A stretch of DNA of 64,000 bases from a virus. The notes beneath the pieces were generated by a model. It saw only the letters and a list, made by a program, of their open reading frames with translations, was not told where the DNA came from and did not search any database. The number at the start of each line of letters is the position of its first letter. The first letter of the stretch is position 1. Below, piece after piece: positions 1-43,400 of this stretch. The position numbers and the translations under genes were made by a program. The DNA lies in the IMG/VR virus record IMGVR_UViG_3300025030_000090, positions 4,754 through 68,753 of that record; one strand, given 5' to 3'.

Positions 1-169
1 GAACTGTCTGGGAGTGTACTTCTATGCTAGGGGTTTTGGTTCCACTGTGGCCATAGCAGAGGTGGAGTTTTCTGATTCCACTCTTTGTCCATCCATAAGC
101 CAACCATCTACTATTGAGTATGGTAACATTTCCCTGGATAAGACATACATCGCAGATTTTGACGTCCAT
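1..169 (-). CDS. hypothetical protein, partial (runs off window)
   Basis: ATG at 169, open frame MDVKICDVCLIQ... to the edge; directly follows the 175..624 gene. Confidence 0.55.
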   Translation of the reverse strand, partial: MDVKICDVCLIQGNVTILNSRWLAYGWTKSGIRKLHLCYGHSGTKTPSIEVHSQTV

Positions 170-174
170 TTTGT

Positions 175-624
175 CTATATCCTCCCATCACATATTGGAC
201 CTATTCCAGTGGCTATAGACTCGGGGACAGTAAGCTTCCTACCACACCTTCCACATTTCCCTTCGTGCCAGACTTCCAAGTAGGCAGGAATTCGGTTCTG
301 GGAAATGGCAGCCCAGAATTGGTTGAATACCTTTTCCGAAGGAGCTTCCAGGGAAATCCTACTCTTTGCTCCGTGCTTGTAAACCTTGCCAGAAAAGATG
401 GTGCCCAAGTACTGGTAACTTCCTTCATTATCTGGGCCACTCATCAGAGCCACGAAGTGGGGAGATTCATCCCCAGGCTTCCTGATTCTGTAGGTCATGT
501 GAAGTCCAGAAATCTTGCTCTTGAGAGTAAAAGTGGCATTTCCTGCCAGAGCAAATTCCAGAACCTTCTCAGGGGTTTCCAGCATACCAGACATCATCTT
601 CTCTTTTCCCTTTCCTACCTTCAC
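175..624 (-). CDS. DUF6011-type Zn-binding phage protein
   Basis: C-terminal CGRCGRKLTVPESIATGIGPIC; real start probably the ATG near 597 after a purine-rich RBS. Confidence 0.75.
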   Translation of the reverse strand: MKVGKGKEKMMSGMLETPEKVLEFALAGNATFTLKSKISGLHMTYRIRKPGDESPHFVALMSGPDNEGSYQYLGTIFSGKVYKHGAKSRISLEAPSEKVFNQFWAAISQNRIPAYLEVWHEGKCGRCGRKLTVPESIATGIGPICDGRI

Positions 625-628
625 TTAT

Positions 629-738
629 ATCTTACTACTTATCTTGAGGAGAGTAAAATGTCTAAAATCGCCAAAATCAGCTGATTTACCCATGAAATCT
701 CATTAGTTCTCACTTTCTCTTTGGTTTTCTCACTTTTT
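629..738 (-). promoter_or_regulatory. early promoter P1 (TTTACT-N17-TAAGAT) with upstream 10-bp repeat array
   Basis: -35 at 652-657, -10 at 629-634; array begins at 699. Confidence 0.8.
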
Positions 739-1943
739 CACTCGAAGTCGGCAAGTTTGTATACTTTTGACTTTCTGGGAAGGTGTCGTGTTTTTCCCCC
801 TGGAAGCAAGAACCAAGACCATCGTTCTGGGTGTTTGGGGCTTATAGGATTTGCTTCTCCATCTGTGAATACCCAAACTACTTCGGGATATTTGCTCCTG
901 CTCAGCAGAGCATCTTCTATGCATGAGAAGGAAGTTCCTCCTCCGTCATATATCTTTTTCTCTTGGAGGTTGATTTCCTTGGCCCTTGTATCAAACACAT
1001 AAGCATGGATTTCAAAGTGTTTCTTTGGGATGCTTTTTGCCGCTTGCACGAATTGTGTGTTTGCATTCGAACAAGAACCAGAGATATCCAAAAATAGGTA
1101 GATTTCTACTTTTTTCTTCCCAAAATCATCACTTGAATTGTCGCTAGGAAGAAAGAAGTCACTTTGTAATCCTGAAAGTCTTCGATTCACTCTGGTCCAT
1201 TGCTCGGATTCTTCTTCATCCAGGGCCTTCTTGTTCCAGTTCTTTATTAGAGACATCCACTTCTTCTTTTCCACTACTTTGATTGAAGAAGCTTGCCATT
1301 GGATGTTGCTTTCATTGCCAGGAAGCTTTCCCGCTGTTTCTTCTATTTCTTCTTGAGTAATTTTCTCCCCAGCATCTTCTTGGCTTTTTCCTTGTAGCCA
1401 ATCTTCTATTGCCTTTCCTTCCCCAGAGGGATTGTCCATGGCCATCGGAATTCCGTCTTCACCTTTAGGAAGATTCTTCATCTGTTGAAGGTAGTAGTCA
1501 AAGGTTTGGTCTTCAAAAATCTTTGGCGTCGGGGGAAATACAGTATCAATCCAGCAAAGGCTTTCTCCGATAGAGATTTCCTCTCTTTTGAAGCCAAAGT
1601 ACTTTACCAGAAGATGGTTGATGGAAATGTCCATGGCAACATTCAAGGCTTCTGGAAAAAATTGTTCCAGAAAAGGTTCTCCTCTGGAGCCATGCCTCAA
1701 AGTAATGTGTCCCATTTCATGGCATATGACAAAGATTTTTGTGTTTTCATCCAGAGAATTCCAAAAGGCTTCGTTTATTTGGAACTCCAGGATATCATTC
1801 TCTTTGTTCAAGTGCACCGCAGCAGTTTTGATTTCGTCCGTGAAAACGGGCTTCCCTACTTCCCAAAACCTGGAGAAGAGAATTGCCTTTTCCTCAAGCT
1901 TCCTGGAGATGGAGAGATATTCATCAAGAGGGAAGGTGCTCAT
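738..1943 (-). CDS. metallopeptidase-like + VWA domain protein (DUF2201 type), MoxR partner
   Basis: CHEMGH zincin motif; DISGS MIDAS, GGGT, VFTDG. Confidence 0.85.
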   Translation of the reverse strand: MSTFPLDEYLSISRKLEEKAILFSRFWEVGKPVFTDEIKTAAVHLNKENDILEFQINEAFWNSLDENTKIFVICHEMGHITLRHGSRGEPFLEQFFPEALNVAMDISINHLLVKYFGFKREEISIGESLCWIDTVFPPTPKIFEDQTFDYYLQQMKNLPKGEDGIPMAMDNPSGEGKAIEDWLQGKSQEDAGEKITQEEIEETAGKLPGNESNIQWQASSIKVVEKKKWMSLIKNWNKKALDEEESEQWTRVNRRLSGLQSDFFLPSDNSSDDFGKKKVEIYLFLDISGSCSNANTQFVQAAKSIPKKHFEIHAYVFDTRAKEINLQEKKIYDGGGTSFSCIEDALLSRSKYPEVVWVFTDGEANPISPKHPERWSWFLLPGGKTRHLPRKSKVYKLADFE

Positions 1944-3022
1944 ATTTTTTCTACCGCCATGATATCATTTCCACTGAACTTTGTAGTTTGGTGGTGCTTG
2001 AAGAGATGGTGGGAGCATCGCATATAAGTTTTATATGTCCTCCTACATTCTGGACAGCGATATCGTTTTTCTGAAGCAGCAGCAGGAGACTTTCCCATAA
2101 AGTTTGAGTCACCTGGCTGGTACCTCTTTATGATATCCTTGATGAAGCCAGTTTCTTCTCCAAGCTTTGCGGCCACTTCCTGGGGAAACAAGGGAATGAA
2201 GAACTTGGAGAGTGGAATTGACTTGGTGATAATTGGAGTGATTTCGCTCAGATTTTCTCTGATGATGGTCTTGGCTCCTTTTATGTCTTTGGCAGCATAG
2301 AGACCTTCAAGAAGCTTTTTGAAGTCCTTCTTGCCATTCAGCAGCCCAAGCAAGGTGGTTACATTCACCTCATTGGGAAGAACATCCCTTATATCCCCTT
2401 GGGCTGTCCAAGCTTGCAGCGCATAATCCAGCCTACGGGGAGAGACAAGAATCTTTACCTTCTGCTCCAAATTCTTCCACCAGTCTATGGCATTCTTCGC
2501 CACATCTATGCCATATTTCTGTGTGAAGTATCCCAGGTTGGGAGTAAAGGGAACTGTTACCTGAATCTGGAATCTATCCTTCTGGGCAGGGTCTAGCTTT
2601 TCCACATCATATTCTGCCTCTGTGGAGTCATCTGGGTTAATGGCAGCCCATACTATGCGAAGGTTCTTGAACCTGTGGCCGTTGATGCTCTTGAACTGAA
2701 TAAGCTCCATCACGGCGTTCTTGACCTTCTTTGGAGCACGGTTGTACTCATCGAAGAAGAGAGCTTCTACGATGTCATCCCTGAATGAAAGGGGACGAAC
2801 GATATCCAGGAAAGACTTCCCTTCTGAATCCTTCTGTTCCTTGGGCACTCCGATGAAGTCCACCCAGGGGTCCATGGTGGCAGCAGAGAAGTACTTCCAT
2901 TTTAGATGATTGCGTTCAAAAGCTTCCTTCACGATAGTGGTCTTTCCGACGCCATGTTCTCCTACCAGAAGGACATTGTAGTTGTTAGCAATCCAGAAGT
3001 CCAGCTTTGCGTCAGTAATCAT
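1940..3022 (-). CDS. MoxR-like AAA+ ATPase with C-terminal C2H2-like finger
   Basis: GEHGVGKT, FFDEYNR, AAINP, LDPAQKDRF; CPEC..HLFKHH tail; stop/start overlap with VWA gene. Confidence 0.88.
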   Translation of the reverse strand: MITDAKLDFWIANNYNVLLVGEHGVGKTTIVKEAFERNHLKWKYFSAATMDPWVDFIGVPKEQKDSEGKSFLDIVRPLSFRDDIVEALFFDEYNRAPKKVKNAVMELIQFKSINGHRFKNLRIVWAAINPDDSTEAEYDVEKLDPAQKDRFQIQVTVPFTPNLGYFTQKYGIDVAKNAIDWWKNLEQKVKILVSPRRLDYALQAWTAQGDIRDVLPNEVNVTTLLGLLNGKKDFKKLLEGLYAAKDIKGAKTIIRENLSEITPIITKSIPLSKFFIPLFPQEVAAKLGEETGFIKDIIKRYQPGDSNFMGKSPAAASEKRYRCPECRRTYKTYMRCSHHLFKHHQTTKFSGNDIMAVEKI

Positions 3023-3050
3023 TTTCCCTTCCCCTTTCCCTTACACTATA

Positions 3051-3170
3051 ATCTTACTATAGATAGATTGCGGAGTAAAATGCCTAAATTGGCCTATTTC
3101 GAGTGATTTCAAGGCTGCATCTCATCCATCCTCATTAGTTCTAACTCATTCGCTTGTTTTCTCACTTTTT
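3051..3170 (-). promoter_or_regulatory. early promoter P2 (TTTACT-N17-TAAGAT) with 10-bp array
   Basis: -35 3074-3079, -10 3051-3056; array 3121-3170. Confidence 0.8.
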
Positions 3171-4436
3171 CATGACTTCCATCATTGCCTTACCAATTGC
3201 AAAGGTAAGCTCGCCTTCAAAGGCAATGTCTCCATCTTTGAATCCCTTCCCGTGAAGCCTTTCGTGAATCAGAACCGCAGTGGCGCTTCCGATGCTTCCA
3301 AGATTTTCTCTGGAGAGATAAACGATTCCCTTTTTGTAAAGTCCCACAGTGGTGAGCCCATTCTGAGCATTGTCTGCATTGCTGATGCTTTCTACTATTC
3401 TGACTTGAGAGATTTTTGCATCTGGGACTACCTTCTGGGATACTTCCCTGGCTATTTTCAAAACCTTCTTTTCCGCCTCTGTAAGAGGAGAAGCAAGTTT
3501 CAGAGGCTTGTGAACCTTTGGAGGGATTTCAGAACTTCTTTTTACCCTGCTGACATTCAAAGTGTTTGCAAGGTAGTAGGGGAAAGGAATTGGCCTCCAG
3601 CCCATTTGAATTGCTTTTGAGTCAGAAACTGGCGAATCGCTGATGCAAGCCTTCTTGCCATACAAACCGATGAAAGCGGTCTTCCAAAGCTTTTGTGTCT
3701 TGGAGGGATACATGTAGATTCCTGATTCGGCAATTGGTGATTCTTGGCCACATTTGATGAAATGGGCCAGAGTTTCTATTGAAGCAATGGAAGTGATTTT
3801 CTTGGAAATTTCCCCTTGAACGATTTGGATGTCCAAGATGCTGCGGTCTCTATTGGCAGCAACCTTGGTGGTAATATTGTATCCCCAAAGACACTTCTCC
3901 ATCTTCTGGACAAATACCCCATTGATATACAAGACACCTGATTCCTTTAGGATGCCAAGCCTCTTGGAGATGTATTCCTTGGGGGTCAATTCCAGGAACA
4001 AGTTCTTCGCAGTGAGAAAAATCTCTTTGGTGCAAGTGACGGTGATTTCTGTCCCAGCAGTTCTTCCATTGGGTGAAACATCCAGAGCAAGCACATTTGT
4101 TTCATAAGTAGTGGAGTACTGCATCCTGGGGGACACATCATATCCCACAGTAGACACAACTACGGGGACATTTTCCCTGGCAAGAACCAAAAGGGCCAAC
4201 TTCAAGCCTTCCCCGAATTGTCCTATCTCCCCATGATTTCCTTCCCCAAAAACCCAGAACGGGCGAGGAATTCCAGCAGCTTGGTCGCTGATGGTAGCTT
4301 GCCCTTGGGACTTGTGGTACTTTACGGAAATCTTGGTCTTGGTATCCAAGGCGTTGGCAAGAAGCTCCCGAAGAGCTTCTACCACAGTCCAGTTGGGGAT
4401 ATACTTGGGAGAAAGAGGATATTCGAGGGTTTGCAT
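3162..4436 (-). CDS. GHKL (HATPase_c-like) ATPase with C-terminal HExxH motif
   Basis: RELLANALD, ISDQAAGI, GQFGEGLKLA; LIHERLH near C-terminus. Confidence 0.78.
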   Translation of the reverse strand: MQTLEYPLSPKYIPNWTVVEALRELLANALDTKTKISVKYHKSQGQATISDQAAGIPRPFWVFGEGNHGEIGQFGEGLKLALLVLARENVPVVVSTVGYDVSPRMQYSTTYETNVLALDVSPNGRTAGTEITVTCTKEIFLTAKNLFLELTPKEYISKRLGILKESGVLYINGVFVQKMEKCLWGYNITTKVAANRDRSILDIQIVQGEISKKITSIASIETLAHFIKCGQESPIAESGIYMYPSKTQKLWKTAFIGLYGKKACISDSPVSDSKAIQMGWRPIPFPYYLANTLNVSRVKRSSEIPPKVHKPLKLASPLTEAEKKVLKIAREVSQKVVPDAKISQVRIVESISNADNAQNGLTTVGLYKKGIVYLSRENLGSIGSATAVLIHERLHGKGFKDGDIAFEGELTFAIGKAMMEVMKK

Positions 4437-4443
4437 TGTTTCT

Positions 4444-4677
4444 TTACTTCTTCTCTTCCATCCTGGCCGCTATGGTCTCTGGAAGGATGGCTGCTACTAC
4501 CAGGTGCCCGCTATCAAGATAAAGCACTGCTCTCGTGAGCTTTCCGCAAGTAGCGTCAATGAGAGTCCCCTTCTCTCTGGCATCTCTGATGGACTTCTTC
4601 ACTGGGGAAGATGCAGGTGAAAGAATCGAAAGCACTCTGTTGGGAGATACCAGGTTGCCGTATCCCAGAGAAATCAT
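4444..4677 (-). CDS. remA: RemA/DUF370-family DNA-binding regulator
   Basis: GYGNLVSPNRVLSILSPASSPVKK..A...G.LIDATCGKLTRAVL.LDSGHLV..AI.PETIAAR matches the family; ATG at 4677 overlaps upstream TGA. Confidence 0.85.
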   Translation of the reverse strand: MISLGYGNLVSPNRVLSILSPASSPVKKSIRDAREKGTLIDATCGKLTRAVLYLDSGHLVVAAILPETIAARMEEKK

Positions 4678-5201
4678 TCCTTCTCTCCTTCGTCTTCTAC
4701 TTCCCCTCTGAAGAATGCTTCCAGATGCTTGCAGGTGTGAACTCCAGTTCGCTTGAGGGAGAATCTCCACCCAGGACAAGAGCAGTAGTACTTGCCTTCG
4801 GTGTTGGAGAATCTTATCTCGTATATCCCGTGCTTCCCTGGGACGGTTGCCACCACAGTTGTTATAGTCATCTTGGCTATTCCCCCCAGCTTCTGAGTCA
4901 AGACCGAGGAGATTTCTTGACAGTATTTTTGGACATCCTCCATAGTGGCCCCAGGTTCAGACTTTTGGACTTTCAGGAGCATCCTGTCACCGACAAAGGG
5001 AATCAATTCGGAGAATTGGAAGGAGCGGGGAATGTAACCAACCACCTTATTTTCTCCTTGAGTGGCATTGGTGTAATGCTTCCAACCCCCATCAGCACCA
5101 GCACTTCTGGAGTTCTCCCACATTCCATCACTGATTTGACCTAGAAGCTCTTCGTTCCAGAGGTCTACCATTGCTTGCTTCCTGAAAGTAAAGGTTGCCA
5201 T
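4674..5201 (-). CDS. SWIM zinc-finger protein
   Basis: YYCSCPGWRF...CKHL. Confidence 0.75.
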   Translation of the reverse strand: MATFTFRKQAMVDLWNEELLGQISDGMWENSRSAGADGGWKHYTNATQGENKVVGYIPRSFQFSELIPFVGDRMLLKVQKSEPGATMEDVQKYCQEISSVLTQKLGGIAKMTITTVVATVPGKHGIYEIRFSNTEGKYYCSCPGWRFSLKRTGVHTCKHLEAFFRGEVEDEGEKE

Positions 5202-5235
5202 GTTTCTTTCCTCTCCTTTTCCTACCTACACTTAT

Positions 5236-5355
5236 ATCTTACTACTTGTTCAGGAAGAAGTAAAACCCCTAAATCAGCCGTTTTCGGGCGATTCTATGGG
5301 CTAATCTCACCCGTTCTCATTAGTTCTAACTCTACCTTTCGTTTTCTCATTTTCT
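5236..5355 (-). promoter_or_regulatory. early promoter P3 (TTTACT-N17-TAAGAT) with 10-bp array
   Basis: -35 5259-5264, -10 5236-5241; array 5306-5355. Confidence 0.8.
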
Positions 5356-5632
5356 CGGATATCTTGAATTCCGGAGCCAAAATAAGCCCACCATCGCCAT
5401 CTGGTTCTGGTCCTACAGGAGGGGTATCATCATTGCCCCTCTCATCATCGTCATCTTCAAAGTACTTGCGAAGCCATTCTATGTTTTCTTCTGTCTTGAG
5501 AAGTAATGCTTCCATAAAGGCTATGGTGACTTGAGAGCAAACGATACTGACAAGAATTTCTGATGCGCCGCATCTGGCTAGCTCTATTCTTGTCTTGCAA
5601 ATTCTCTCCTGAAGCTCTTTTTCATATTTCAC
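5294..5632 (-). CDS. hypothetical protein (C-terminus reads through the P3 array)
   Basis: ORF with stop/start overlap to neighbour. Confidence 0.55.
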   Translation of the reverse strand: MKYEKELQERICKTRIELARCGASEILVSIVCSQVTIAFMEALLLKTEENIEWLRKYFEDDDDERGNDDTPPVGPEPDGDGGLILAPEFKISEKMRKRKVELELMRTGEISP

Positions 5633-5820
5633 TTCTTCTTTCCCTCCACATATGCTGCTGCTTTCTCATAGACTCTAACAAAGACTTCATCGGGATTTTT
5701 CATTCCAGAAAACCATCCTTCTATGAAGCGAAAAATCAGTTCCCTCTCCTGAGGACTACCTTTTCGAGCAAGGGAAAGCGCCACATCCATTCGCTGCCGT
5801 AAGGTAAGCTTCTTTTCCAT
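5629..5820 (-). CDS. hypothetical protein
   Basis: AGGAG RBS before MEKKLTL; track ORF extends to 5877. Confidence 0.5.
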   Translation of the reverse strand: MEKKLTLRQRMDVALSLARKGSPQERELIFRFIEGWFSGMKNPDEVFVRVYEKAAAYVEGKKK

Positions 5821-6174
5821 GTTTCTCCTACAGTCGTTCAGTACTACCAGTTCTACAGAGGGATTCTCGTAAACCACAGAGACAACATCTCCTCTCGGTC
5901 CCGATTGATGAGGGTTCTGGTCAGCGCTACTCCATCAAGAATAAGAGAAGGAGGAAACTGCCTTGGCTTGAGTCCTAGCTCAGAGGCTTCCTTTACGATG
6001 ATTGCCATTACTTCTTTCCCTCCATGAACTTTCTGTAGTCTTCTTTGGTGTTGAAAACGGCGTATCCACCACGGACTCGGTGAACTAACCTTGAAGGACT
6101 GGCTGCCATTGCTTCCCACTTGCTTACCTGCACCAGGATTTTCACTTTTCCCTCCCTTTTTCCCTTCCATAGTT

Positions 6175-6294
6175 ATCATACTACTAATAGGTAGTGGAGT
6201 AAAACAGCTATATTCGCCAAAATCAACCGATTTCAAGGGCAAATCTCATTAGTTCTAACTCATTCTCATCCATTCGCTTGTTTTCTCACTTTCT
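6175..6294 (-). promoter_or_regulatory. early promoter P4 (TTTACT-N17-TATGAT) with 10-bp array
   Basis: -35 6198-6203, -10 6175-6180; array 6245-6294. Confidence 0.8.
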
Positions 6295-6315
6295 CTATTT
6301 TTGGGCTGAAAATGA

Positions 6316-6366
6316 ATATAGGGAGCAATCTAGCAGTGCTACCATCTGCTTTCATACTCCCTATAT
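6316..6366 (-). terminator. stem-loop at the 3' end of the structured-RNA/small-ORF transcript
   Basis: ATATAGGGAG/CTCCCTATAT outer stem, AGCAG/CTGCT inner stem; only a weak U tract. Confidence 0.4.
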
Positions 6367-6389
6367 CCAGAAGGGAAGGAAAAGAAGGA

Positions 6390-6614
6390 CTATGCTCTAA
6401 TAATGAGCTCTGCTACATAACCCAATTCAGTTAATTGCTCCTCAGAAAGAGAAACCCCTGCCCGAACATAGAATTCCGCAGTTTTTCTTCCTGCAAGGAC
6501 AGTTACTACAGGCTTGTTTCCCCTGATTTGGGATACTTTGTAGCTTCCATCATTGTTTCTGACCAGAGTTATCGTTGGTTTCTTTTCCATGATTCTTTTC
6601 TCCTTTTCGGCCAC
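6390..6614 (-). CDS. small hypothetical protein downstream of the structured RNA
   Basis: ORF; AAGGAG RBS favours the internal MEKKPT start. Confidence 0.6.
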   Translation of the reverse strand: MAEKEKRIMEKKPTITLVRNNDGSYKVSQIRGNKPVVTVLAGRKTAEFYVRAGVSLSEEQLTELGYVAELIIRA

Positions 6615-6816
6615 TATATTGTGGGCTTATGATTTTGAAGATCTTGAGACAACAAATGAAGGAGTTAGGAAGTAGTAGTTTTCGAAGGTTCAGCCTCCAT
6701 TGGAGACCAGTGTCAAAATTCGCGATGCAAAGTCAAGGTAAATTTAGTGGTCGGTTTGCTTTGCCCAAACCTCTGAAAATTCTACTTACTACTACTTTCT
6801 AACTCCTAATTTTTTG

Positions 6817-6873
6817 GCTTCAATTAAGATCCAAGGTTCAACACTAGTTTGAATATTGAGCCCAAACTTTGAA
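6817..6873. repeat. 57-bp direct repeat copy 1 (hairpin-forming)
   Basis: 53/57 identical to 7185-7241. Confidence 0.92.
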
Positions 6874-6907
6874 GCCAACTTTTGGACTTCCTGGTGAGAA
6901 GTTATTC

Positions 6908-6987
6908 TCTGGCTTGTCTCACTCCGCGAGATTGTTTCCTCCTCAACAATTTCATCGTTTACGAATCATCAGTCGCGTATTGCCAGA
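6908..6987 (-). ncRNA. type I hammerhead ribozyme
   Basis: CGCGA-CUGAUGA-uUCGuaaaCGAu-GAAA-UUGUU..AACAA-UC-UCGCG; stem I extended by UCUGGC/GCCAGA. Confidence 0.75.
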
Positions 6988-7184
6988 ACAGATGCCACCT
7001 GCACAGAAGTCCTCTGGTGGCCCACGATATTTAATTTTTAATATATCAGGAAAGATTTCGGGGATATGGCATCCAACTTCCGTTGAATCCGTATGACACA
7101 GTTCCTGACTTTCGCTTCTCTGCTACAGCAAGCCTCCCGACGAAATCTCCTTTGCTTGCGTTAAGTTTTCTCCTGATAATCTCA

Positions 7185-7241
7185 GCTTCAATTAAGACCC
7201 AAGATTCAATACTAGTTTGAATATTGAGCCCGAACTTTGAA
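7185..7241. repeat. 57-bp direct repeat copy 2
   Basis: see copy 1. Confidence 0.92.
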
Positions 7242-7506
7242 ACTAAAGTTATTAAATTAGGCAGCCCTAACCCCAACACTGCCTTTTCTCGACCACTTAT
7301 AAGCAGAGCTTGCTACATCCAATACAGCAAGATGCTCCTGCACTCGAGAATTCCCATATTCGAGGAGGTTGGTGGAAGATGCTTTGCAACTCCCTTACCA
7401 ACAATCCTCAAATACGGAAGGTTTAGGTTATCATCCTTGGCAGTTTTCAGGAAGGGTTGATGAGGCCTTCTCCTTCTGGCTTTGTGCCCTGCCCCTTCCA
7501 TATATA

Positions 7507-7596
7507 AATATACTACATACGAAGGTGGTAGTAAACTCTTTCTACAGGCCAAAATTGGGCAATTTCAAGGCTGTATCTCATTAGTTCTAATGATTT
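7507..7596 (-). promoter_or_regulatory. early promoter P5 (TTTACT-N17-TATATT) driving the structured RNA
   Basis: -35 7530-7535, -10 7507-7512; array starts at 7577. Confidence 0.75.
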
Positions 7597-7634
7597 TGAG
7601 TGGTTTCTTTAGTTTTTGCTTCTTCTAGTTATGA

Positions 7635-7838
7635 TTAGGCTAGTGCAAATGGGTTTCTTTTAGAGGATAATCTTCGTTCTTTCAGAAAATGTATGCGCTT
7701 TTCTAAATCTTTTTTAGAAATTGAGCCATTCAGGGAATCCAATACCTGCAAAGCGGCATGAATGTCGTATATAGCTCCTCTCCTATCCACGTGAATCCTC
7801 TGCTTCATGATTCTTCGAACCTTTTTCTCGGTAGGCAT
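7635..7838 (-). CDS. hypothetical protein
   Basis: AAGGAGG RBS, promoter upstream. Confidence 0.6.
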   Translation of the reverse strand: MPTEKKVRRIMKQRIHVDRRGAIYDIHAALQVLDSLNGSISKKDLEKRIHFLKERRLSSKRNPFALA

Positions 7839-7870
7839 TTTTGTTGCCCTCCTTTTCTTTTTCCAATTTA

Positions 7871-7899
7871 ATGGTATAACTTTTGGGGAGGGGAGTAAA
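7871..7899 (-). promoter_or_regulatory. promoter P6 (TTTACT-N17-TACCAT)
   Basis: same -35 and spacing as P1-P5. Confidence 0.6.
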
Positions 7900-8044
7900 T
7901 AGGTAAAGGTACCTAATTTTGAAGCTGAAGATTTTGAAGTTGTTAGGTATTGTTACTTATGGGTAGGAAACTATAGGCTTGTCTTCCAAGGCTCCGGTTT
8001 TGTGAAAAACTTGAAAAATCCGTATCTGTGTTTTTCGGTTTTCT

Positions 8045-8254
8045 TCAAGGATTTTGCCGCCTGGAAAAAGCTTGCTGGGAAGAATTTCCTGCCAAGTCAG
8101 AGTATCTTCCAACAATCTTCAGAGACACCTTCTCCTTGCATATAGGACAACCTTTGCTGTATTTTTCTGGCCGAAAAACATCACCCCTTTCTGCATATGC
8201 AACAAAGTGTCCATTCTCGCAGTGCCATTCAAGACCAGGAAGAGTAAACATCAA
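8045..8254 (-). CDS. small Zn-ribbon-like hypothetical protein
   Basis: CENGH...CPIC. Confidence 0.5.
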   Translation of the reverse strand: MMFTLPGLEWHCENGHFVAYAERGDVFRPEKYSKGCPICKEKVSLKIVGRYSDLAGNSSQQAFSRRQNP

Positions 8255-8415
8255 TCACCAACACCCGAATATCCCGAGTATGGTTGTGGTTGTAGTAGCA
8301 AGAACGATTCCAGCCCAGAAACAGTATTCTGTTATGCGTAGCATTTTCTTACTACGAACCTTGGTAGCAATCATCAGAGAGAGTATTGATATAGTATATC
8401 CTGTAATAAGAAATA

Positions 8416-8859
8416 TCACAGTTTGATTACCTCACAGTCATAGATTTTCGCCAGGTGAAGAATTGTCTCTTTGTATACTTCACTGGAACTATCAGGAACC
8501 CACAGGCCAGATATAATGGCTCTGTTGCTTCGGAAGCCTTCCCGATGTGTTACTACATTTCCGTAGTGGATAACAGAACCAATAGCCATATTCAAATCTA
8601 GAAACCTATTTGAGCCATCAAGATATAAATTCTGAAGAAGTCGGAGAGAATCTTCATAAGAGTAGTATCCGCAAGTGCATTGTCCCTTGTATGTATGGGT
8701 AGCACAAGCAGAAGCTCTCTCTTTCCAGCTTCCCAGGGTCTTTCGGCATATTCCCAGATTTTCTTTCTTCCACTGTGAGGAAAAAGCCTCGGAAAAAAGA
8801 GCCATATCTCTGGCTCTTGGGTCTTTCTTTATCATCCAGGCTCTGTATCCTACAAACAT
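8416..8859 (-). CDS. conserved-looking phage hypothetical protein
   Basis: GYRAW...CTCGYY...HREGFR pattern; RBS. Confidence 0.6.
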   Translation of the reverse strand: MFVGYRAWMIKKDPRARDMALFSEAFSSQWKKENLGICRKTLGSWKERASACATHTYKGQCTCGYYSYEDSLRLLQNLYLDGSNRFLDLNMAIGSVIHYGNVVTHREGFRSNRAIISGLWVPDSSSEVYKETILHLAKIYDCEVIKL

Positions 8860-9209
8860 TGTCTTCTCCTTTTCTTTCCAGGAGCATTCATTGGTCTTCC
8901 ATCATCAGGTTGAGTAGACCACCTCTCAACGATAATCCCCAGGAAAGATAACCTTCGTAGAGATAGGTTTCCTCTGGGGATTATTTCGGATGCCATTTTT
9001 ATTATAGGTCGCCTTCCTCTTTCGAGGCATTCAATATAAAAACATTTTTTTAGCATTATTCGTTGGCTTCGTCAGGTCATCGTCTCACCTCCACTTTCTC
9101 TGGGACACGCAAAGGAACTGAAGGGAGCCTTCTGGGGCTTGGGAACATTTGCATCTACTTTGGTTGGCTGCCCGATGTTCATCATCCTCTCCTTTTCCCT
9201 TACACCATA

Positions 9210-9238
9210 ATCATACTACTTATTCAGAGGCAGGTAAA
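9210..9238 (-). promoter_or_regulatory. promoter P7 (TTTACC-N17-TATGAT)
   Basis: same architecture; degenerate array starts at 9280. Confidence 0.7.
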
Positions 9239-9737
9239 ACTTGAAAAATAGCCAAAATCAGCCATTTTATCCTTGAAATCTCACTTATTCGCATTATTTC
9301 GTGTGATTTCTTTTGTTTTCTTGTACTTTCAGAGTATTCAATCTTGCTTGTATGATTATTAATGCAGTTTCCAAGCCATCTTTCTTCCCAGATTTTTTGC
9401 CTGACATATCTGGGATTCAAACCTTCGTATGTCATATCAATCTCTCATTTCCCAAGTCTCTGATTTTTGACTGTATAAGCATCATATCTTGCAGAGTAGG
9501 CTGCTCTTTGCTCAACATCGGCAGAGAATCTTCAAGAAGCTTCCGAAGTTTTTCCAGCAGTTTTCTCTGCATCTCTTTGGCTGTTTTATTAGCATCTCTT
9601 CTTGGCATCATATGTTTTTACTTTCCCTTCTTGCTTGGTATTATCTTTTGTGCATAAATAACAAGGAATTTTTACTTTTTGTTGCAAATTGAGCATTGAA
9701 TAGAACCATTTCTTTCCGTTGCACAAAATACAAGTCA

Positions 9738-10001
9738 TTATGCCACCACATACGTCACGAAAAATGCGCCTCTGGAAAAAGGTTTTGCTTGAAGAATTTC
9801 CAAGTCATAAGAAGCATACTTTACAGGAACATATCTCCACCAAGCTTGCTTTACTTTCTCTGGCGATGCTTCTATATCATATTCCTGCTTGAGTTTTTCA
9901 CAAAATGCTTTGGCGTCTTGTTCTCCTTTGGAAAAGTAGGTGTAATAATCAGTTGCTCCATCGTCTTCAGTATATTCTATCTTCAAAGGATGCTTTTTCA
10001 T
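9738..10001 (-). CDS. hypothetical protein
   Basis: stop/start-coupled ORF. Confidence 0.6.
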   Translation of the reverse strand: MKKHPLKIEYTEDDGATDYYTYFSKGEQDAKAFCEKLKQEYDIEASPEKVKQAWWRYVPVKYASYDLEILQAKPFSRGAFFVTYVVA

Positions 10002-10309
10002 TGTGACAAAATTTTCACGGGTCTAAGAACTGTGCATTCACGACAATTATCTTGTTCATCACTCCAGAAGAACAGTTTTCCATTTCGTGTAAAGTAATCG
10101 CCTTGTTTAGCTATTCTTTCTCCTGTCTCTTCAAAGACAACATTTCCAAAGGTATATCTCTCAGACACCTTTCGGAAAATTGCATAGTAGAAGATTGTAC
10201 GGTCATTCATTTGTTCTACAATGCCGTTTTCTGAAAGGAAATACTCTCTCTCATGAGGTATATCGTATTTCACAAACTCGAATTTGTCTTGTCCTTGGTT
10301 TACAATCAT
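9998..10309 (-). CDS. hypothetical protein
   Basis: stop/start-coupled ORF. Confidence 0.6.
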   Translation of the reverse strand: MIVNQGQDKFEFVKYDIPHEREYFLSENGIVEQMNDRTIFYYAIFRKVSERYTFGNVVFEETGERIAKQGDYFTRNGKLFFWSDEQDNCRECTVLRPVKILSQ

Positions 10310-10797
10310 TTCTTGTCCTTCATAATTTCCATCATCGTTTCCCAGGCTTCTACATTTCCCATTGCGTCACCTACTGGGTTGTGTGTATGCTTTGTTTTTC
10401 TGAACTTTTTCCAGCTGGAAGTATCACTTATATTTCCAGTGATTCCAGCCCAAACATCCCCAATTCTTCTAGCAGAATGTCCAAAAGGATTTTTCCCGAT
10501 TGAAGAAAAGCCATCTGCAATCCACTGCCAATCATATGCAGGATTATCGCTTATAAGAACGAGTCTTTCATCTATGCATATTCTGTTTAGCCACGAATTG
10601 AAACGCATGAATACTTCTGGAAGTTCTTCTGCCATGTTTTCTATTTCAGGAATTGCTGGATTCAGCAAAGAAGGATGTGTTACATAGATGATGCCATGGA
10701 AAGATTCCTTGGAAGGATATGCCACTGCAGCAAATTCTGTTAGAACACCATCCCTGGGGCAAGTTCCTGTGGCTTCACAATCTACGAAGATTAGCAT
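10306..10797 (-). CDS. DEDDh 3'-5' exonuclease
   Basis: VDCEATG, DNPAYDW, HTHNPVGDA. Confidence 0.82.
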   Translation of the reverse strand: MLIFVDCEATGTCPRDGVLTEFAAVAYPSKESFHGIIYVTHPSLLNPAIPEIENMAEELPEVFMRFNSWLNRICIDERLVLISDNPAYDWQWIADGFSSIGKNPFGHSARRIGDVWAGITGNISDTSSWKKFRKTKHTHNPVGDAMGNVEAWETMMEIMKDKK

Positions 10798-11111
10798 TCC
10801 AGTACTTCCTTATATTTTTCGGGAATGAAATCATTCGCCAGTAGTATTCTATCTGGATACATCAAAGTTCCTGGTTTGGATTTCTCTAGATAATCTGGTC
10901 TCCAACCAGGTTGCCAGTCTTCTACACCTATAACACGAATATGCCACTCTTCTTTAGATTTATCCCAATCAGGAGAAACTTTTTCTATTTTGATTACTTT
11001 GCCAAATTTCAAAGCAGCACATCTTCCCAGTAGGCTTCCATATGCTATGAAATCACCTACATGAACAGTGTTGCTTGCTTTATCAAGAAAACAATATTTA
11101 GTGTGTCTCAT
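10791..11111 (-). CDS. hypothetical protein
   Basis: coupled ORF. Confidence 0.6.
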   Translation of the reverse strand: MRHTKYCFLDKASNTVHVGDFIAYGSLLGRCAALKFGKVIKIEKVSPDWDKSKEEWHIRVIGVEDWQPGWRPDYLEKSKPGTLMYPDRILLANDFIPEKYKEVLEC

Positions 11112-11356
11112 TGGTAAGTTTCTGCAAATTGGGTGTCTAGTTTTTGTTCTTGGAGAAATTCCATAATTTTATCTACTTCATCTTGTTTTGCCCCTCCAAG
11201 AAAGTAATGTTTTGTTTCGCCTATATAAGTATCTCTGAGATGAGTAATTTTGAGCCAATCTCGGAAAGCTTCTTGCTGCTCTTTGGTCATGTAGGCTTTT
11301 CCAATTACGAAAGAGCAAGAAGAAGAATTTGATACAAAAGCAGTTCTGATTTTCAT
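11108..11356 (-). CDS. phage hypothetical protein with MKIRxxFVSNSSSxSF N-terminus
   Basis: N-terminal motif recurrent in large phages. Confidence 0.7.
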   Translation of the reverse strand: MKIRTAFVSNSSSCSFVIGKAYMTKEQQEAFRDWLKITHLRDTYIGETKHYFLGGAKQDEVDKIMEFLQEQKLDTQFAETYQ

Positions 11357-11601
11357 GATATCTCCTTATTTTCAATTTTCTTCGGGGAAGCAATTTTTGG
11401 TCTTGAAGAAGAACAAGGAAGTTTGAATACAATAGGGTCATAACATCCTTTCTTGCTGGCTTCTGCTAAAACGCTTTCCATATCTTCTCCAACAGCAACA
11501 ATTCCGCAGAAATCTACAGCAAGCCATTTTCCGCTGTGTTGTCTGATTTCTTCCATATGGGATTCAATCCATTTTTGAGCAGTCATATTATCTTTCCACA
11601 C
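11353..11601 (-). CDS. DUF5678-like protein
   Basis: WIESHMEEI..HSGKWLAV...IVAVGED...L.EA. Confidence 0.6.
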   Translation of the reverse strand: MWKDNMTAQKWIESHMEEIRQHSGKWLAVDFCGIVAVGEDMESVLAEASKKGCYDPIVFKLPCSSSRPKIASPKKIENKEIS

Positions 11602-11692
11602 CTCTTGCAGCTTATTGGCTTCCAGATATTTTCAGGAAAACACCAATAATGTCCCAATACAGTACATGTAAGATTGTCTACTATTTGCTTTA

Positions 11693-12088
11693 TCAGTCTA
11701 ATGATGTTTGTATTTCCCACGCAAGCACTCCGAATGAAGGATATATTTTCCCATGGAATTTTTTCAGCAACGAGGAAAGCTCTTTGTATTTCTTCTCACA
11801 ATCTGGGCGGAATTGCATCGGAGCAAGGGCAGGATTTACAATCCAGGGATGCAAGAATATCATTCTCCTGTCTATCACAGAAGATAGCCCTGCAAGTGTA
11901 GTAGCTGGCTTGCTATATGTCCCTATAGAATCAAGTTTATCTGGTAGTTTTATTGAGGTTTCTTTTTTCTTTTCATCTTCTTTCTGGATTTGTAGTGTTG
12001 CTTCAGAGGGGACAATAGTTCTTTTCCTTTTGCCCATAGTTTTTTTCCTTTTTTCTATATTGCTTCCAGCATGGTCCAAGGGAAACAA
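11693..12088 (-). CDS. hypothetical protein
   Basis: ORF; start uncertain. Confidence 0.45.
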   Translation of the reverse strand: MFPLDHAGSNIEKRKKTMGKRKRTIVPSEATLQIQKEDEKKKETSIKLPDKLDSIGTYSKPATTLAGLSSVIDRRMIFLHPWIVNPALAPMQFRPDCEKKYKELSSLLKKFHGKIYPSFGVLAWEIQTSLD

Positions 12089-12340: not shown

Positions 12341-12865
12341 CTATTGTCTCTTGTCTTTCCAGTATTTTGCCATAGATTCTTTTTCACAAAATTGGCATCG
12401 TATTTCTTCCCAATCAGGCTCGGGTTCATCAAAGGAGACGATATCAACAATGAAGTGCATGTAACCTTGGCCTCTATTTTGGTGTGATAGAATAGTCATG
12501 CTTCTAGATTTTGGGTCTAGGATATAAATCCATTCAAGAAACAGAGGATCGCAACTAGCTCCTTCTTCCAGGGGCTTTCTTACATCTCTTGAAGGCACAT
12601 ATGGCTTCTGATGGCATTCGCAGCCATGCAAGAAAGCTTCCCCAAATTCCTCTGGGTCATTGAAACTTCCCTCGGAAATAACTTCCCAGCCTCCTGGGTG
12701 CTCTTCAATTGCGTAATGGAGGAATGCTTCTATATCGCCTTGAAATTTTCCCCTTACCAAATTCCAAATATCTTTACCTAAACCAGAAGGATATCCATCC
12801 CAGTGATGGAAAATCCCCTTCCAGCCATCGCCATCAATTCTTGCTATTGCTGCTCTTGTAGACAT
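12341..12865 (-). CDS. phage hypothetical protein (MSTRxxI..HWDGYP type)
   Basis: HHWDGYPSGLG, EWIYI motifs. Confidence 0.7.
   Translation of the reverse strand: MSTRAAIARIDGDGWKGIFHHWDGYPSGLGKDIWNLVRGKFQGDIEAFLHYAIEEHPGGWEVISEGSFNDPEEFGEAFLHGCECHQKPYVPSRDVRKPLEEGASCDPLFLEWIYILDPKSRSMTILSHQNRGQGYMHFIVDIVSFDEPEPDWEEIRCQFCEKESMAKYWKDKRQ
12351..12400. repeat. 50-bp exact duplicate of 18942-18991
   Basis: identical sequence encoding RCQFCEKESMAKYWKD in two genes. Confidence 0.92.
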
Positions 12866-13376: not shown

Positions 13377-13406
13377 ATTATACCTATAGACAGATACGAA
13401 AGTAAA
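13377..13406 (-). promoter_or_regulatory. promoter TTTACT-N18-TATAAT
   Basis: intergenic; same -35. Confidence 0.65.
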
Positions 13407-18874: not shown

Positions 18875-19075
18875 TTATTCCTCATTATCTTGGGCCACTA
18901 ACCAGCTGTATTTTTTGTCACACAAAGGACAAATGGTTTGATTGTCTTTCCAGTATTTTGCCATAGATTCTTTTTCACAAAATTGGCATCGCAGAAGATA
19001 TTCAGAAGGATACTGGTTACTCATTTTTTCCGCCAAAAAATTCAAGAAATTCTTCTGCTGTGGCACGAGAAGCAA
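18875..19075 (-). CDS. small Zn-ribbon protein
   Basis: CQFC...CPLC; start likely MSNQY. Confidence 0.55.
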   Translation of the reverse strand: MLLVPQQKNFLNFLAEKMSNQYPSEYLLRCQFCEKESMAKYWKDNQTICPLCDKKYSWLVAQDNEE

Positions 19076-40423: not shown

Positions 40424-43400
40424 TCAATCGTCCATTTGTACCCATTTTGCAGGCTTTGATTCTTTTGCCATAACAAGAAATTCTCTTTCATTTTCGTTAT
40501 ATGAATGTGCGTAATAGAAAGACCAAATATCTTCCCTTTTTGTTTTTATTTGCAACGTTATATTCCCAAAATTTTTTGCCTTATAATAAGAATGAGACCA
40601 GGAAGATAAAGCATCTTGATTTAGAAGCACTGGGACATAAGAGTGAGTTCCGCTGTACCCAACAAGCTTCGGTTTTCTCTTTACTTCATTAAGACTTGTT
40701 CCTCTATATAAAGTGATGAATTCGTCTTCTTCATTCTTTTTCGGAAATGCTTCTGCCAGAATTCTTTGCGTTAAATCATAATGAATTCTAACATATTCAT
40801 CTATCTCTTTTCCGCCTAGTCTGAATCGCATTTCTTTTACTTGTCCTTCCATCTTATCTGTGAATCTTGGATGGGCATATGTTTGTTTTTGAATTATTCT
40901 AGAAACTGCTTCTTTTATAGTATACGCATCCATAGAAGTAGAAGATACTGCCCAACCCTCTTTCAACGTTTCATGTATGAATTCATATGGCGTCCCTTTA
41001 TAGAGTTCATCTACAATTTGCACCATCGTTTGCGAAGGACCTTTATTAGAAGTTAGTTGTCCGATGTATTCTTTGAATTTGTCAGATAGTTTTTCAGGCA
41101 ATTTCCAGGTTCTATGGAATTCATCTATGAATTTTTCCCCAAGAATATTATCTCTGATTAGGCTTCTAATTTCTATTTTTCCTCGTTCACCTGTGCTCCA
41201 ATTTGAAATATTGTGGTTTTTCATGTGTTTCCCAATAAGTTTTCTGACAAACAAATATTGAGCATCTTCATCGCTTGAATGTTTCTCATAAAATTCTTGA
41301 AAAACATTTCCATTACTTCTTGATACAGAATCAAGAAAAGTTTTAGGAGATACTTCTTTTATGTTTTCTAGTATCTCAAGAGTTATCTCTTTGTTTGGTA
41401 TTCTTTTTGAAACTGTTTCTTTTACGAATATATCTCTATCTTTTGTTAATTTTTTCAGGATTCGTATATTTCTTATTTTACCAGCTACAAGTTCTCTGAT
41501 TCTCGCAGAGCTATCATCTGCTAACATTTCCAGAATAGGTTGTAAATCTCTTTCATAAGCCGCCGAAGCTGCCAAAAAACGTTCTGTTTCATTTGGCGAT
41601 TCTACCCATTTGATAAATGTGTCTATAGCTTTGTGTTCTTCTGGGTTAACATATATAGTTCTAGTTCTTCTGAATGGTGGGCCGTCTTTGGGGTGAACTA
41701 TCTCATGTATCTGTTTAGGAATTTTTCCTCTGGTTTCTCTTTTTTCCAGTTCATTGTCAAAGAACTTTCTAATAACTTCCTCAAAATCACCTAAAAACAA
41801 ATCATCAAGTTCTTCTTCTGAAACCCATTTGTAGCTAGAATGCTCCTTGTTTAACTTGATCTCTCCAGAAATTTCCACTTTGTAGAAAAGAACTGGATGT
41901 TCGTCCTTTCCTATCTCTGTTTCCCCAGAAATGTCAAATTCTTCTATGTCTTCTACTTTGCAGTTTATCTCTTCCTGAAGTTCTCTTCGCAGCGCTTCCT
42001 TTGCGTCCTCTTTTTGGTCGATGTGGCCTCCTGGGAGGTCGTATGGAAATTTAGAATTGGTAGGATTATGAAGTAAAAGCAATCTTCCTTCTTCATCCAG
42101 TATCAATGCTTTTGCAGAAATAGGAAGGTTTGCTTTTTCTATTTTGTCCTTTGTTTCTATCTTTCTTGTTTCGGGATTAAAAGTTGCAGCAGAATCCAGT
42201 TGCCAACCTCCGGAACCATCTGGAACTATAAGATTCTTTGGAATTCTGAAAGAATAAACTTGGCTATCTTCTGGGTAATCTACATCCCTGCCTTGAGCAT
42301 AACTTCTATCAGTAGCAAAGAATTTTCCTTTAGGAATTTCTTCTCCAGAAACCCATTTTTCATATTCTTTAGCACTCATGTCTCTATAAACACGAATAAG
42401 TTTTGGTTCTTTTCCTTGGTGTAGAGAAATAAAACTAGGAAAATATCCCACATTGGATTTCCATTTCGAATAATCTGGTTTCCCATAAAGCATTTCATAT
42501 ATTGTTTTGACTTGTCCAAACATGCTTTCTTGAATGTCTTTTCCATTTTCTTCAGCTTCTTCGAATGAGGACAGGTCATCTCCATCCCAAAAATCTACTT
42601 CCCCGTCATCACCTATAGAAATTTGGGCCGAAGAAGTATATTTGGAATTTGGCATCTTTTGATGAATAACCATTCTGATGTCAAAATTATCTTCCATTTT
42701 ATCATAGTCAGGAAAGTCAGAATACATAGGCGGAAGAAGTTCAATCTTCGTCATCAAAAAATCTTCCATTCTGTGAATGTGGGCTTTTAGTTTTTCGAAT
42801 GTTTCTTTTCCGAATTGGTGAAAAAGAACATAATCAATAGCATTTTGTCTGTCTTCTTTTTCCCAAAACTCCCCTATGTCTTTGTTCTTTCTATAGCTGG
42901 CCCAGTCGTTGGTATCATGTCTTTCCATCCCTAGAGAGAACCAGACTTGTCCAGGGGAATAATTTGTAATTGGCTTTCCAAAAATTAGAGTTTCTTCCCA
43001 TTCTGGTTTGTTTTCTATATGGGATTCTTCCGCTTCTTCTTTTGCTTCTTCAGGAGAAACCCATCGAATACCCCAAAATGTTTTTCCTTGCTGATGGATC
43101 TGCACCTTTTTAGGAATAAGGTTTGGATTTGAATCAGATTTTTGAATTTCTTCTTTCTCTTGTATTGCTTTTTCGGGGTGGAAAACTACAAATTCAGCAC
43201 CTCTTTGTATTCCGAATTGTGTTTTTCTGGGTTCATTTGTTAGAATAATTCCATCATATCCTTGATTCTCTAGCTTCTGTCTTATAAGCTTGCTTTTTTG
43301 CTCTAATTTTTCGGTCAAAGAACCTTTGAAATTCGCCAAATCTTTGGAAACTAGCTCATCTATATCTCCAGGAGTTCTTGGGACATAGGGTTTTTGCAGA

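Follow-up and report, generated by a model that had tools for sequence, protein, structure and literature searches.

The locus at positions 4444–4677 of this phage DNA raises the question of whether a virus can use a bacterial transcription activator to run its own early genes. The gene there encodes a homologue of RemA, and the promoters around it carry short motifs that recur once per helical turn. In Bacillus, RemA is a ring-forming activator of biofilm matrix genes that binds multiple phased AGNAAA-like sites. An initial annotation, made from the letters of the DNA, had proposed that the phage uses host RemA and then its own to control early transcription, or that it rewires or sponges the host protein. 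Our analysis supports this interpretation in part: the anatomy of the arrays fits, whereas a required DNA-contact residue is missing from the phage protein.

The source record is a 68,753-bp IMG/VR virus (IMGVR_UViG_3300025030_000090; CheckV completeness 78%), and the window analysed here is a stretch of 64,000 nucleotides that corresponds to its bases 4754–68753. Coordinates below are those of the window unless they are given as genome positions. The record represents a genuine tailed phage, for which a terminase (large subunit at 54041–55699), portal (50737–53184), head protease, helicase, exonuclease, ribonucleotide reductase (RNR) and NAMPT are annotated, and nearly all of its genes lie on the minus strand. 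No match was found by megablast of 12 kb against GenBank phages, no tRNA genes were found in the phage, and relatives of the terminase are at most 37% identical and have mixed hosts. The nearest named RemA proteins come from Clostridia and Veillonellaceae and so hint, weakly, at a host within the Bacillota.

The window DNA is present in 18 listed sequencing runs from 9 studies, which are groundwater and soil metagenomes; no RNA run is among these listed holders of the stretch. Contigs from four of the runs, compared over window positions 2900–6400, derive from the same phage with a single C>T difference and no array variants, and the loose contig ends seen in this comparison are cross-matches among the promoter cassettes described below. 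Elsewhere in the window, a 1693-aa ORF (40424–45505) has a tRNA nucleotidyltransferase-like N-terminus, as in a CCA-adding enzyme fusion, and a Nudix domain near residues 1130–1250. An exact 50-nt direct repeat occurs at 12351–12400 and again at 18942–18991, the copies being 6.6 kb apart.

The gene at 4444–4677 on the minus strand is an intact 77-aa member of the RemA/DUF370 family, as the initial annotation had recognized. The Pfam profile for RemA-like proteins (PF04025) matches residues 1–73 over profile positions 1–73 of 73, with 84.1 bits against a cut-off of 26 and an E value of 7.1e-24. Alignment to the structure of Geobacillus RemA (7BM2) is ungapped, pairs residues 2–73 with 6–77 and yields roughly 50% identity (E 1.1e-22). 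The phage protein thus covers the full-length family represented by RemA (YlzA) of B. subtilis and G. thermodenitrificans, although it lacks the N-terminal residues and C-terminal tail of those proteins. A genome-wide search for PF04025 returned the same single match, and Pfam comparison of 27 window ORFs revealed no other domain of the transcription-factor type; most small early ORFs in the window have no detectable family.

The RemA start codon overlaps the stop codon (ATGA) of a 175-aa ORF (4674–5201, minus strand), and a 424-aa gene (3162–4436, minus strand) begins after 8 bases, so the operon comprises three genes, of which RemA is the second. The 175-aa product has no assigned function; it carries a C-terminal CxC...CxH motif, gave no match in Pfam and matches phrog_24869 weakly. 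The 424-aa product has a GHKL/HATPase-like N-terminus (phrog_6077). The operon lies below a promoter cassette at 5236–5360, and the earlier placement of RemA under the third promoter (P3) therefore holds with the correction that RemA is not the first gene there but follows the ORF at 4674–5201. This early-operon setting differs from that of the cellular gene: the chromosomal position of remA beside gmk named in the initial annotation was seen in both genomes examined, a Bacillus and a Clostridia metagenome-assembled genome (L100 and L084), as yicC-remA-gmk-rpoZ, and this context is absent for the window remA.

Residues with established roles in RemA can be located directly, since phage numbering plus 4 gives the numbering of G. 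thermodenitrificans RemA (GtRemA). The structural study of Hoffmann et al. (2021) describes R18 and D59 as ring-stabilizing residues, P29 as a helix start and R32 as a back-to-back contact in the 16-mer, with R32A inactive in B. subtilis (PMC8481266). The first three are kept in the phage protein as R14, P25 and D55, and D36, E39 and R53 are kept as D32, E35 and R49. At the 16-mer contact positions R32, D36 and E/D39 the phage protein has K28, D32 and E35. Besides the R32-to-Lys change, the near-invariant Q35 is replaced by Arg, R50 by K46 and R51 by L47.

The last two of these changes fall in the DNA-contact loop, which reads G-K46-L47-T-R49 in the phage protein, with L47 specified by a CTC codon at 4537–4539. 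Neither of the contact arginines R50 and R51 is present, whereas R53 is retained. Among 295 aligned RemA domains from two database searches, the R51 column holds Arg or Lys in 278, Ser in 8, Pro in 3, Gln in 2 and Val, Ala and Thr in one each; Leu appears in a single domain, which is the window RemA itself. By alignment, the equivalent of Arg51, which is needed for DNA binding in both GtRemA and BsRemA, is absent from the phage RemA. Because R51A alone is described as abolishing gel shift, PepsA activation and biofilm formation, as R50A alone also does (PMC8481266), Leu47 counts against DNA binding by the phage protein. Judged on the aligned residues, the absence fits the proposal of rewiring better than that of simple use as an activator.

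The changed residue is not an error or a sign of decay, because a second phage copy of RemA (P0390) keeps G-K-L-T-R although the neighbouring gene is only 78% identical. This copy, on an 11.4-kb contig that carries the homologue of the 424-aa neighbour, matches the window RemA at 73 of 76 positions (96%), and the RemA protein is under purifying selection. A further contig of 142 kb has a neighbour gene identical to that of the window.

Structure prediction with four copies of the phage RemA gave an association score of 0.48, against 0.22 for the best control; 20 of 30 solved pairs and 1 of 23 single chains attain the mark applied to this score. Partner pLDDT did not fall below 84 and the runs had at least 93% of contacts in common, with ring size outside the scope of the prediction. 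The predicted interface takes in residues 14 and 55, the equivalents of the ring-stabilizing pair, and leaves residues 46–49 exposed. The score may reflect memorization and not evidence of association, because a like complex, 7BM2, is already solved. From the prediction together with the conserved ring contacts, we infer that the phage RemA forms rings.

A repeat search, MAFFT alignment and an nhmmer profile delineated seven cassettes that are paralogues of one another and share the minus strand; six lie in the window and the seventh at genome positions 2998–3146. The five cassettes (P1–P5) of the initial annotation do exist, and the count is to be raised accordingly. The first T of the −35 element lies at 657, 3079, 5264, 6203, 7535 and 9238 in the six window cassettes. 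Each core consists of TTTAC(T/C), a 17-bp spacer and TA(A/T)GAT (TATATT in the cassette at 7535), and is followed by a short conserved leader, a strong Shine–Dalgarno sequence and a start codon. Upstream of each core are six 10-bp blocks, followed by three more turns of phased A/T tracts that extend to the −35 element. From their conservation and position the cassettes are probably promoters; a generic sigma-70 promoter scan gave no excess (15 matches against 14.6 expected), and a terminator scan was likewise uninformative.

The cassette above the RemA operon (5236–5360) has its blocks at 5301–5360, TTTACT from 5264 and a TAAGAT that ends at 5236. Alignment and sequence logo place another at 3051–3175, above genes for an AAA-ATPase and a VWA-DUF2201 protein (1940–3022 and 738–1943), and one at 629–753, above a DUF6011 gene (175–624), which is one 10-bp block shorter than the others. 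The strongest phasing, with nine in-phase AGA pairs, is found at 6175–6299, and this is the cassette whose AGAAAA, AGAATG and AGAACT words at 10-bp steps on the minus strand had been picked out at the start. The most degenerate array is at 7507–7631, and the cassette furthest upstream in the window is at 9210–9334. Downstream of the cassette at 7507–7631, a 62-nt direct repeat (6817–6878 and 7185–7246; 90% identical, 368 bp apart) occupies a region with no convincing ORF start and no match in Rfam, and a search of Rfam with window positions 1–12000 gave no match.

The blocks have the consensus RTGAGAA plus three low-information bases, repeated at exact 10-bp steps. A logo built from 42 blocks, in a single register anchored on a TGAGAT block that is invariant in all seven cassettes, reads R-T-G-A-G-A-A-n-n-(A/C). 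Position 5 is G in 39 of the 42 blocks and position 6 is A in 40; positions 1–7 are informative, and positions 8 and 9 are nearly free (0.08–0.24 bits). When the array is cut at a period of 10 it yields 5.43 bits, compared with 1.65–3.69 bits at periods of 8, 9, 11 and 12. Relative to the first T of the −35 element the blocks span −37 to −96, which puts them at about −72 to −131 relative to the inferred start; the RTGAGAA units extend over about −78 to −131.

Counts of recurring AGA trinucleotides lead to the same period. Across the seven 100-nt upstream stretches, AGA pairs occur 11, 10, 7 and 6 times at lags of 10, 20, 30 and 40, respectively, and 0–4 times at the other lags from 1 to 44. 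For the individual cassettes, the in-phase count is equalled or exceeded in 0, 2, 4, 13, 42, 93 and 122 of 2,000 dinucleotide shuffles; as paralogues the cassettes are not independent trials, so that the common phasing may be largely inherited. A strict three-unit pattern is weak and not significant (4 matches against 1.16 expected, with 5 of 100 shuffles reaching 4), and generic lag-10 self-similarity does not separate the arrays from background. One cassette is 10 bp shorter than the rest and another is 10 bp longer; because these differences are exactly 10 bp, helical phase is kept.

Between the array and the −35 element, at −31 to −17 from the latter, five of the seven cassettes contain the palindrome AAATCnnnnGATTT (window 694–753, 6240–6299, 7572–7631 and 9275–9334; genome 2998–3146), which in the cassette at 7507–7631 is altered on both arms (AAATTGCCCAATTT). 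A direct repeat replaces the palindrome in the cassette at 5236–5360, which is the RemA operon's own, and in the next one downstream, at 3051–3175. The presence of the palindrome in five cassettes suggests a second, dimeric factor, and the two forms may represent two regulatory classes of cassette. A further promoter class in the phage, TTTACT-17/18-TATAAT on the minus strand, has its first −35 T at 13406, 16918 and 20015; these promoters have in common an upstream block GTC(T)CCAAAAAG.GCC.A.TT and looser A-rich phased DNA.

The architecture of the arrays can be compared with what is known of RemA targets. PMC8481266, summarizing Winkelman 2013, describes a RemA footprint of at least six periodic 7-bp protected direct repeats at 3-bp intervals that are AT-rich and poorly conserved, and states that activation depends on 107–159 bp of DNA upstream of the PepsA start. 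The phage arrays have the same pattern, with seven informative and three free positions, six units and a period of 10 in 7 of 7 cassettes, and they extend beyond about −107, to about −131 from the inferred start site. The arrays noted in the initial annotation are real and have the anatomy of RemA sites. A possible difference concerns the degree of conservation: RemA sites are loosely AT-rich with modest conservation, whereas the candidate phage units, A-rich as they are, have two conserved G residues (RTGAGAA) and a near-invariant GA; units upstream of Bacillus epsA likewise start with AG.

Known target promoters of a Bacillus genome provide a second comparison. The intergenic region between epsA and slrR of Bacillus rugosus contains AGGGAAG, AGTAAAT and AGGAAAA (AGNRAA) at exact 10-bp steps, reading toward epsA, at about −108 to −88 from the start inferred from TATAAT; orientation is as in the phage and distance is similar. 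Upstream of B. rugosus tapA are three CAAAAA(T) units, followed by GAGCAAT and GAGTAAG 10 bp apart. These units appear to fit the AGNAAA motif and to resemble the phage (T)GAGAA, although the motifs are short and published footprint positions may differ. On sequence grounds, then, the anatomy of the arrays fits RemA well. According to PMC8481266, footprints come from tagged protein only, there is no structure of a RemA–DNA complex, and the RemA ring has a size of 72 Å. A large tag prevents assembly of the 16-mer. DNA on the rim of such a ring would run to about 85 bp per turn, or about 10.6 bp per subunit, which would amount to one unit per subunit.

The phylogeny that had been proposed as a check and as a host clue gives a partial answer. 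A tree built from 109 RemA sequences nests the window RemA among cellular Bacillota, in a polytomy that is rich in Clostridia and has no starred clade. The terminal branch leading to it measures 2.32 (median, 0.23), and its best cellular match is 58% identical; a metagenome scan for relatives gave matches of at most 49% identity. Because the other phage RemAs form clades outside the cellular set, the tree marks the window RemA as a capture separate from theirs.

Two further forms of the family were seen. Polypeptides with two to six tandem RemA domains (P0121–P0128, P0176, P0183 and P0240), for example six stretches in 531 aa and three in 261 aa, could represent covalently linked partial rings. 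A long-stemmed metagenomic RemA clade (L022:9980–11680 and L025:6253–10258) is 47–49% identical to the window RemA, and its genes adjoin a tyrosine integrase and a HerA/DUF87-like ATPase, indicating that RemA also rides integrative elements.

RemA-like proteins are encoded by at least 20 other IMG/VR phage contigs (L002–L021), and those with annotation prove to be real phages in which a terminase or primase gene lies close by. All but one of these proteins fall in the clades outside the cellular set, and the R51 column is basic in 18 of the 20 and Pro in the remaining two. Among 50,697 GenBank/INPHARED records, eight match RemA, all of them faecal metagenome entries named 'Bacteriophage sp.', and no isolate phage in this set has the gene. 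PHROGs holds no family that matches the window RemA, neither the window RemA nor the 424-aa neighbour gave a match when used as a single query (the former against IMG/VR), and search listings returned no paper on phage-encoded RemA. Like the window protein, the other phage RemAs (L002–L021 and the eight faecal records) are small single-domain proteins among early or replication genes; unlike it, they belong to clades of their own, mostly have a basic residue at the R51 column and are found without the window-type cassette.

Whether remA and the arrays travel together across phages was another suggested check. Homologues of the 424-aa neighbour occur at 37 IMG/VR loci (at most 41% identity, more than a partial match), and 0 of the 37 have RemA and 0 of the 37 have the cassette; relatives that lack RemA thus also lack the cassette, but they are too distant for a real test. 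The cassette pattern gave 0 matches in IMG/VR, and the loci of RemA-encoding phages contain no window-type cassette (best nhmmer E 0.032, core promoter only). AGA-phased regions number 9 in 590 kb at the 37 loci, 8 in 68.7 kb in the phage's own genome and 7 in 220 kb at RemA-phage loci, and are about 7.6-fold fewer per base in the 37 distant relatives than in the phage.

The locus L018, whose RemA is 37% identical to that of the window, has GAGAAAG, TGAGATAGAG, TAAGAAAACG and TGAGAAATTT at 10-bp steps beside TTTAC. This TGAGAA-like four-unit array lies inside a 1.1-kb intergenic region (L018:2445–3524) with about ten AAAATCGG repeats in both orientations and an AT-rich stretch of about 100 bp, which looks like a replication origin, and remA itself is in the replication module beside the primase. 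L018 is thus one suggestive instance of RemA together with phased units. AAATCGG words common to L018 and the window were considered as a motif and rejected, since only one of the seven cassettes has AAATCGG. In another RemA-phage lineage (L015:3009–3110 and L016:2651–2750), four (C/G)AAAA(A)T tracts at 11-bp steps precede a CTTTAC ... TATAAT promoter.

Our preferred reading, to which we give slightly less than an even chance, is that the arrays constitute wrapping sites of the RemA type and that the phage RemA, by acting on them, exerts feedback on early transcription. Under this model, a working, fast-evolved ring protein of the RemA family would be made from the early operon, and the six helically phased RTGAGAA units of each of the seven cassettes would serve as its wrapping sites. 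The phage ring would bind these units, perhaps following their occupation by host RemA when infection begins, and its binding would alter early transcription, most probably through a feedback by which the early cassettes are tuned or shut. The exchange of Arg for Leu in the DNA-contact loop would give the phage protein a preference of its own. Both the binding of the phage RemA to the arrays and the sign of its effect on transcription are what we infer from this arrangement.

A competing account, which we consider rather unlikely, holds that the arrays are unrelated to RemA and represent curved or UP-like DNA or the sites of another phage or host factor, with RemA acting elsewhere. Phased A-rich upstream DNA is common at AT-rich phage promoters, and in this phage and in L015 and L016 it also occurs, in looser versions, at other promoters (13406, 16918 and 20015 in the window); the units carry little information (5.4–6.6 bits), but most have only A2 tracts, which are poor sources of intrinsic curvature, and a near-invariant GA every 10 bp for six turns reaches −131, beyond the usual range of an UP element. 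If a protein other than RemA reads the arrays, the candidates, with a similarly low likelihood, would be a factor that recognizes the palindrome of five of the seven cassettes or an unannotated small early protein, and any product of a small early ORF without a family could be the real binder, although Pfam detected no other regulator domain in the 27 window ORFs. Leu47 speaks against canonical DNA binding, and the placement of remA in the replication module of L018, beside the primase and near the origin-like region, agrees with a target elsewhere, which might be host matrix, osmoprotection or nitrogen genes or a phage origin, again with rather less than an even prospect. The 7 + 3 anatomy, orientation and distance of the arrays, by contrast, match those of RemA targets. 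That the gene is a mere passenger, a recently captured host remA with no phage role, is highly improbable. RemA is absent from the 37 distant relatives of the neighbouring gene and from PHROGs families, as a passenger might be, but the ORF is intact and translationally coupled in an early operon, and RemA is 96% conserved where its neighbour is 78%. With just 58% identity to the closest cellular protein and a very long branch, the gene was not captured recently.

The Leu47 change also permits a model in which the phage exploits host RemA and then poisons it. Here, host RemA would activate the early cassettes, and phage RemA would co-assemble with it into rings that bind DNA poorly; we regard this as unlikely. 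Early promoters have to be active when no phage protein has yet been made, which such a scheme accommodates, and the protein has exchanged R51 for Leu and R50 for Lys while R18, P29 and D59 are kept, with loop residues 46–49 outside the predicted subunit interface. Descent from a cellular RemA of the Bacillota type along a branch of 2.32, compared with a median of 0.23, fits a new function, and the variant is stably kept, as the P0390 copy attests. The scheme nevertheless needs a host with RemA; the phage is known from groundwater and soil metagenomes; mixed phage–host rings are hypothetical; and Lys plus Leu could just as well signify that binding is changed and not lost. At the R51 column, Pro is present in two other phage RemA lineages and 18 of 20 phage RemAs keep a basic residue, so phages do not in general dispense with this residue. 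The consequence, equally unlikely, would be that the early cassettes and the host RemA regulon are both shut, a timing switch plus host takeover. In its full form, in which host RemA wraps the arrays and fires all seven early cassettes until phage RemA disables the host rings, the model seems to us more doubtful still, and so does its corollary that phage RemA turns off early transcription together with the host regulon of matrix, osmoprotection and nitrogen genes.

The feedback reading has a working analogy in p6 of phi29 and TF1 of SPO1, which are small abundant early proteins that wrap or bend phage DNA periodically and switch early promoters. These proteins have folds unrelated to RemA and are not known to derive from a host activator or to have discrete 10-bp unit arrays at each promoter: p6 contacts DNA at 24-bp intervals, and TF1, an HU-like protein, favours hmU-DNA. 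Targets of LytTR regulators consist of 9-bp repeats with a 12-bp spacing, not of 10-bp unit arrays. Among bacterial regulators, PMC8481266 likens the wrapping of DNA around an octamer to Lrp/AsnC and the RemA dimer to a single LytTR domain (AgrA). RemA has no HTH domain. The closest likeness remains RemA (YlzA) itself, to which the phage system corresponds in its kept ring residues and predicted self-association and in candidate 7 + 3, 10-bp multi-unit sites far upstream of sigma-A-type promoters.

How RemA recognizes and wraps DNA is still unsolved, and this phage offers natural material for the problem. Its seven cassettes are compact, naturally occurring versions of a candidate site whose consensus, RTGAGAA at 10-bp steps, is sharp, and its RemA is a natural allele altered at a key DNA-contact residue; together they form a ready-made set on which specificity, ring size and wrapping could be tested. 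Genes of the RemA family occur repeatedly in phages, on at least 20 IMG/VR contigs besides the separate capture described here. Should the poisoning model hold, a virus would for the first time be seen to make a dominant-negative mimic of a ring-forming bacterial transcription factor, and the protein would provide a natural separation-of-function allele for the unsolved RemA–DNA complex. If instead the link between RemA and the arrays that we prefer is true, the phage may have borrowed the RemA switch to time its own genes, and the arrangement would constitute a new type of early-gene timing device in phages.
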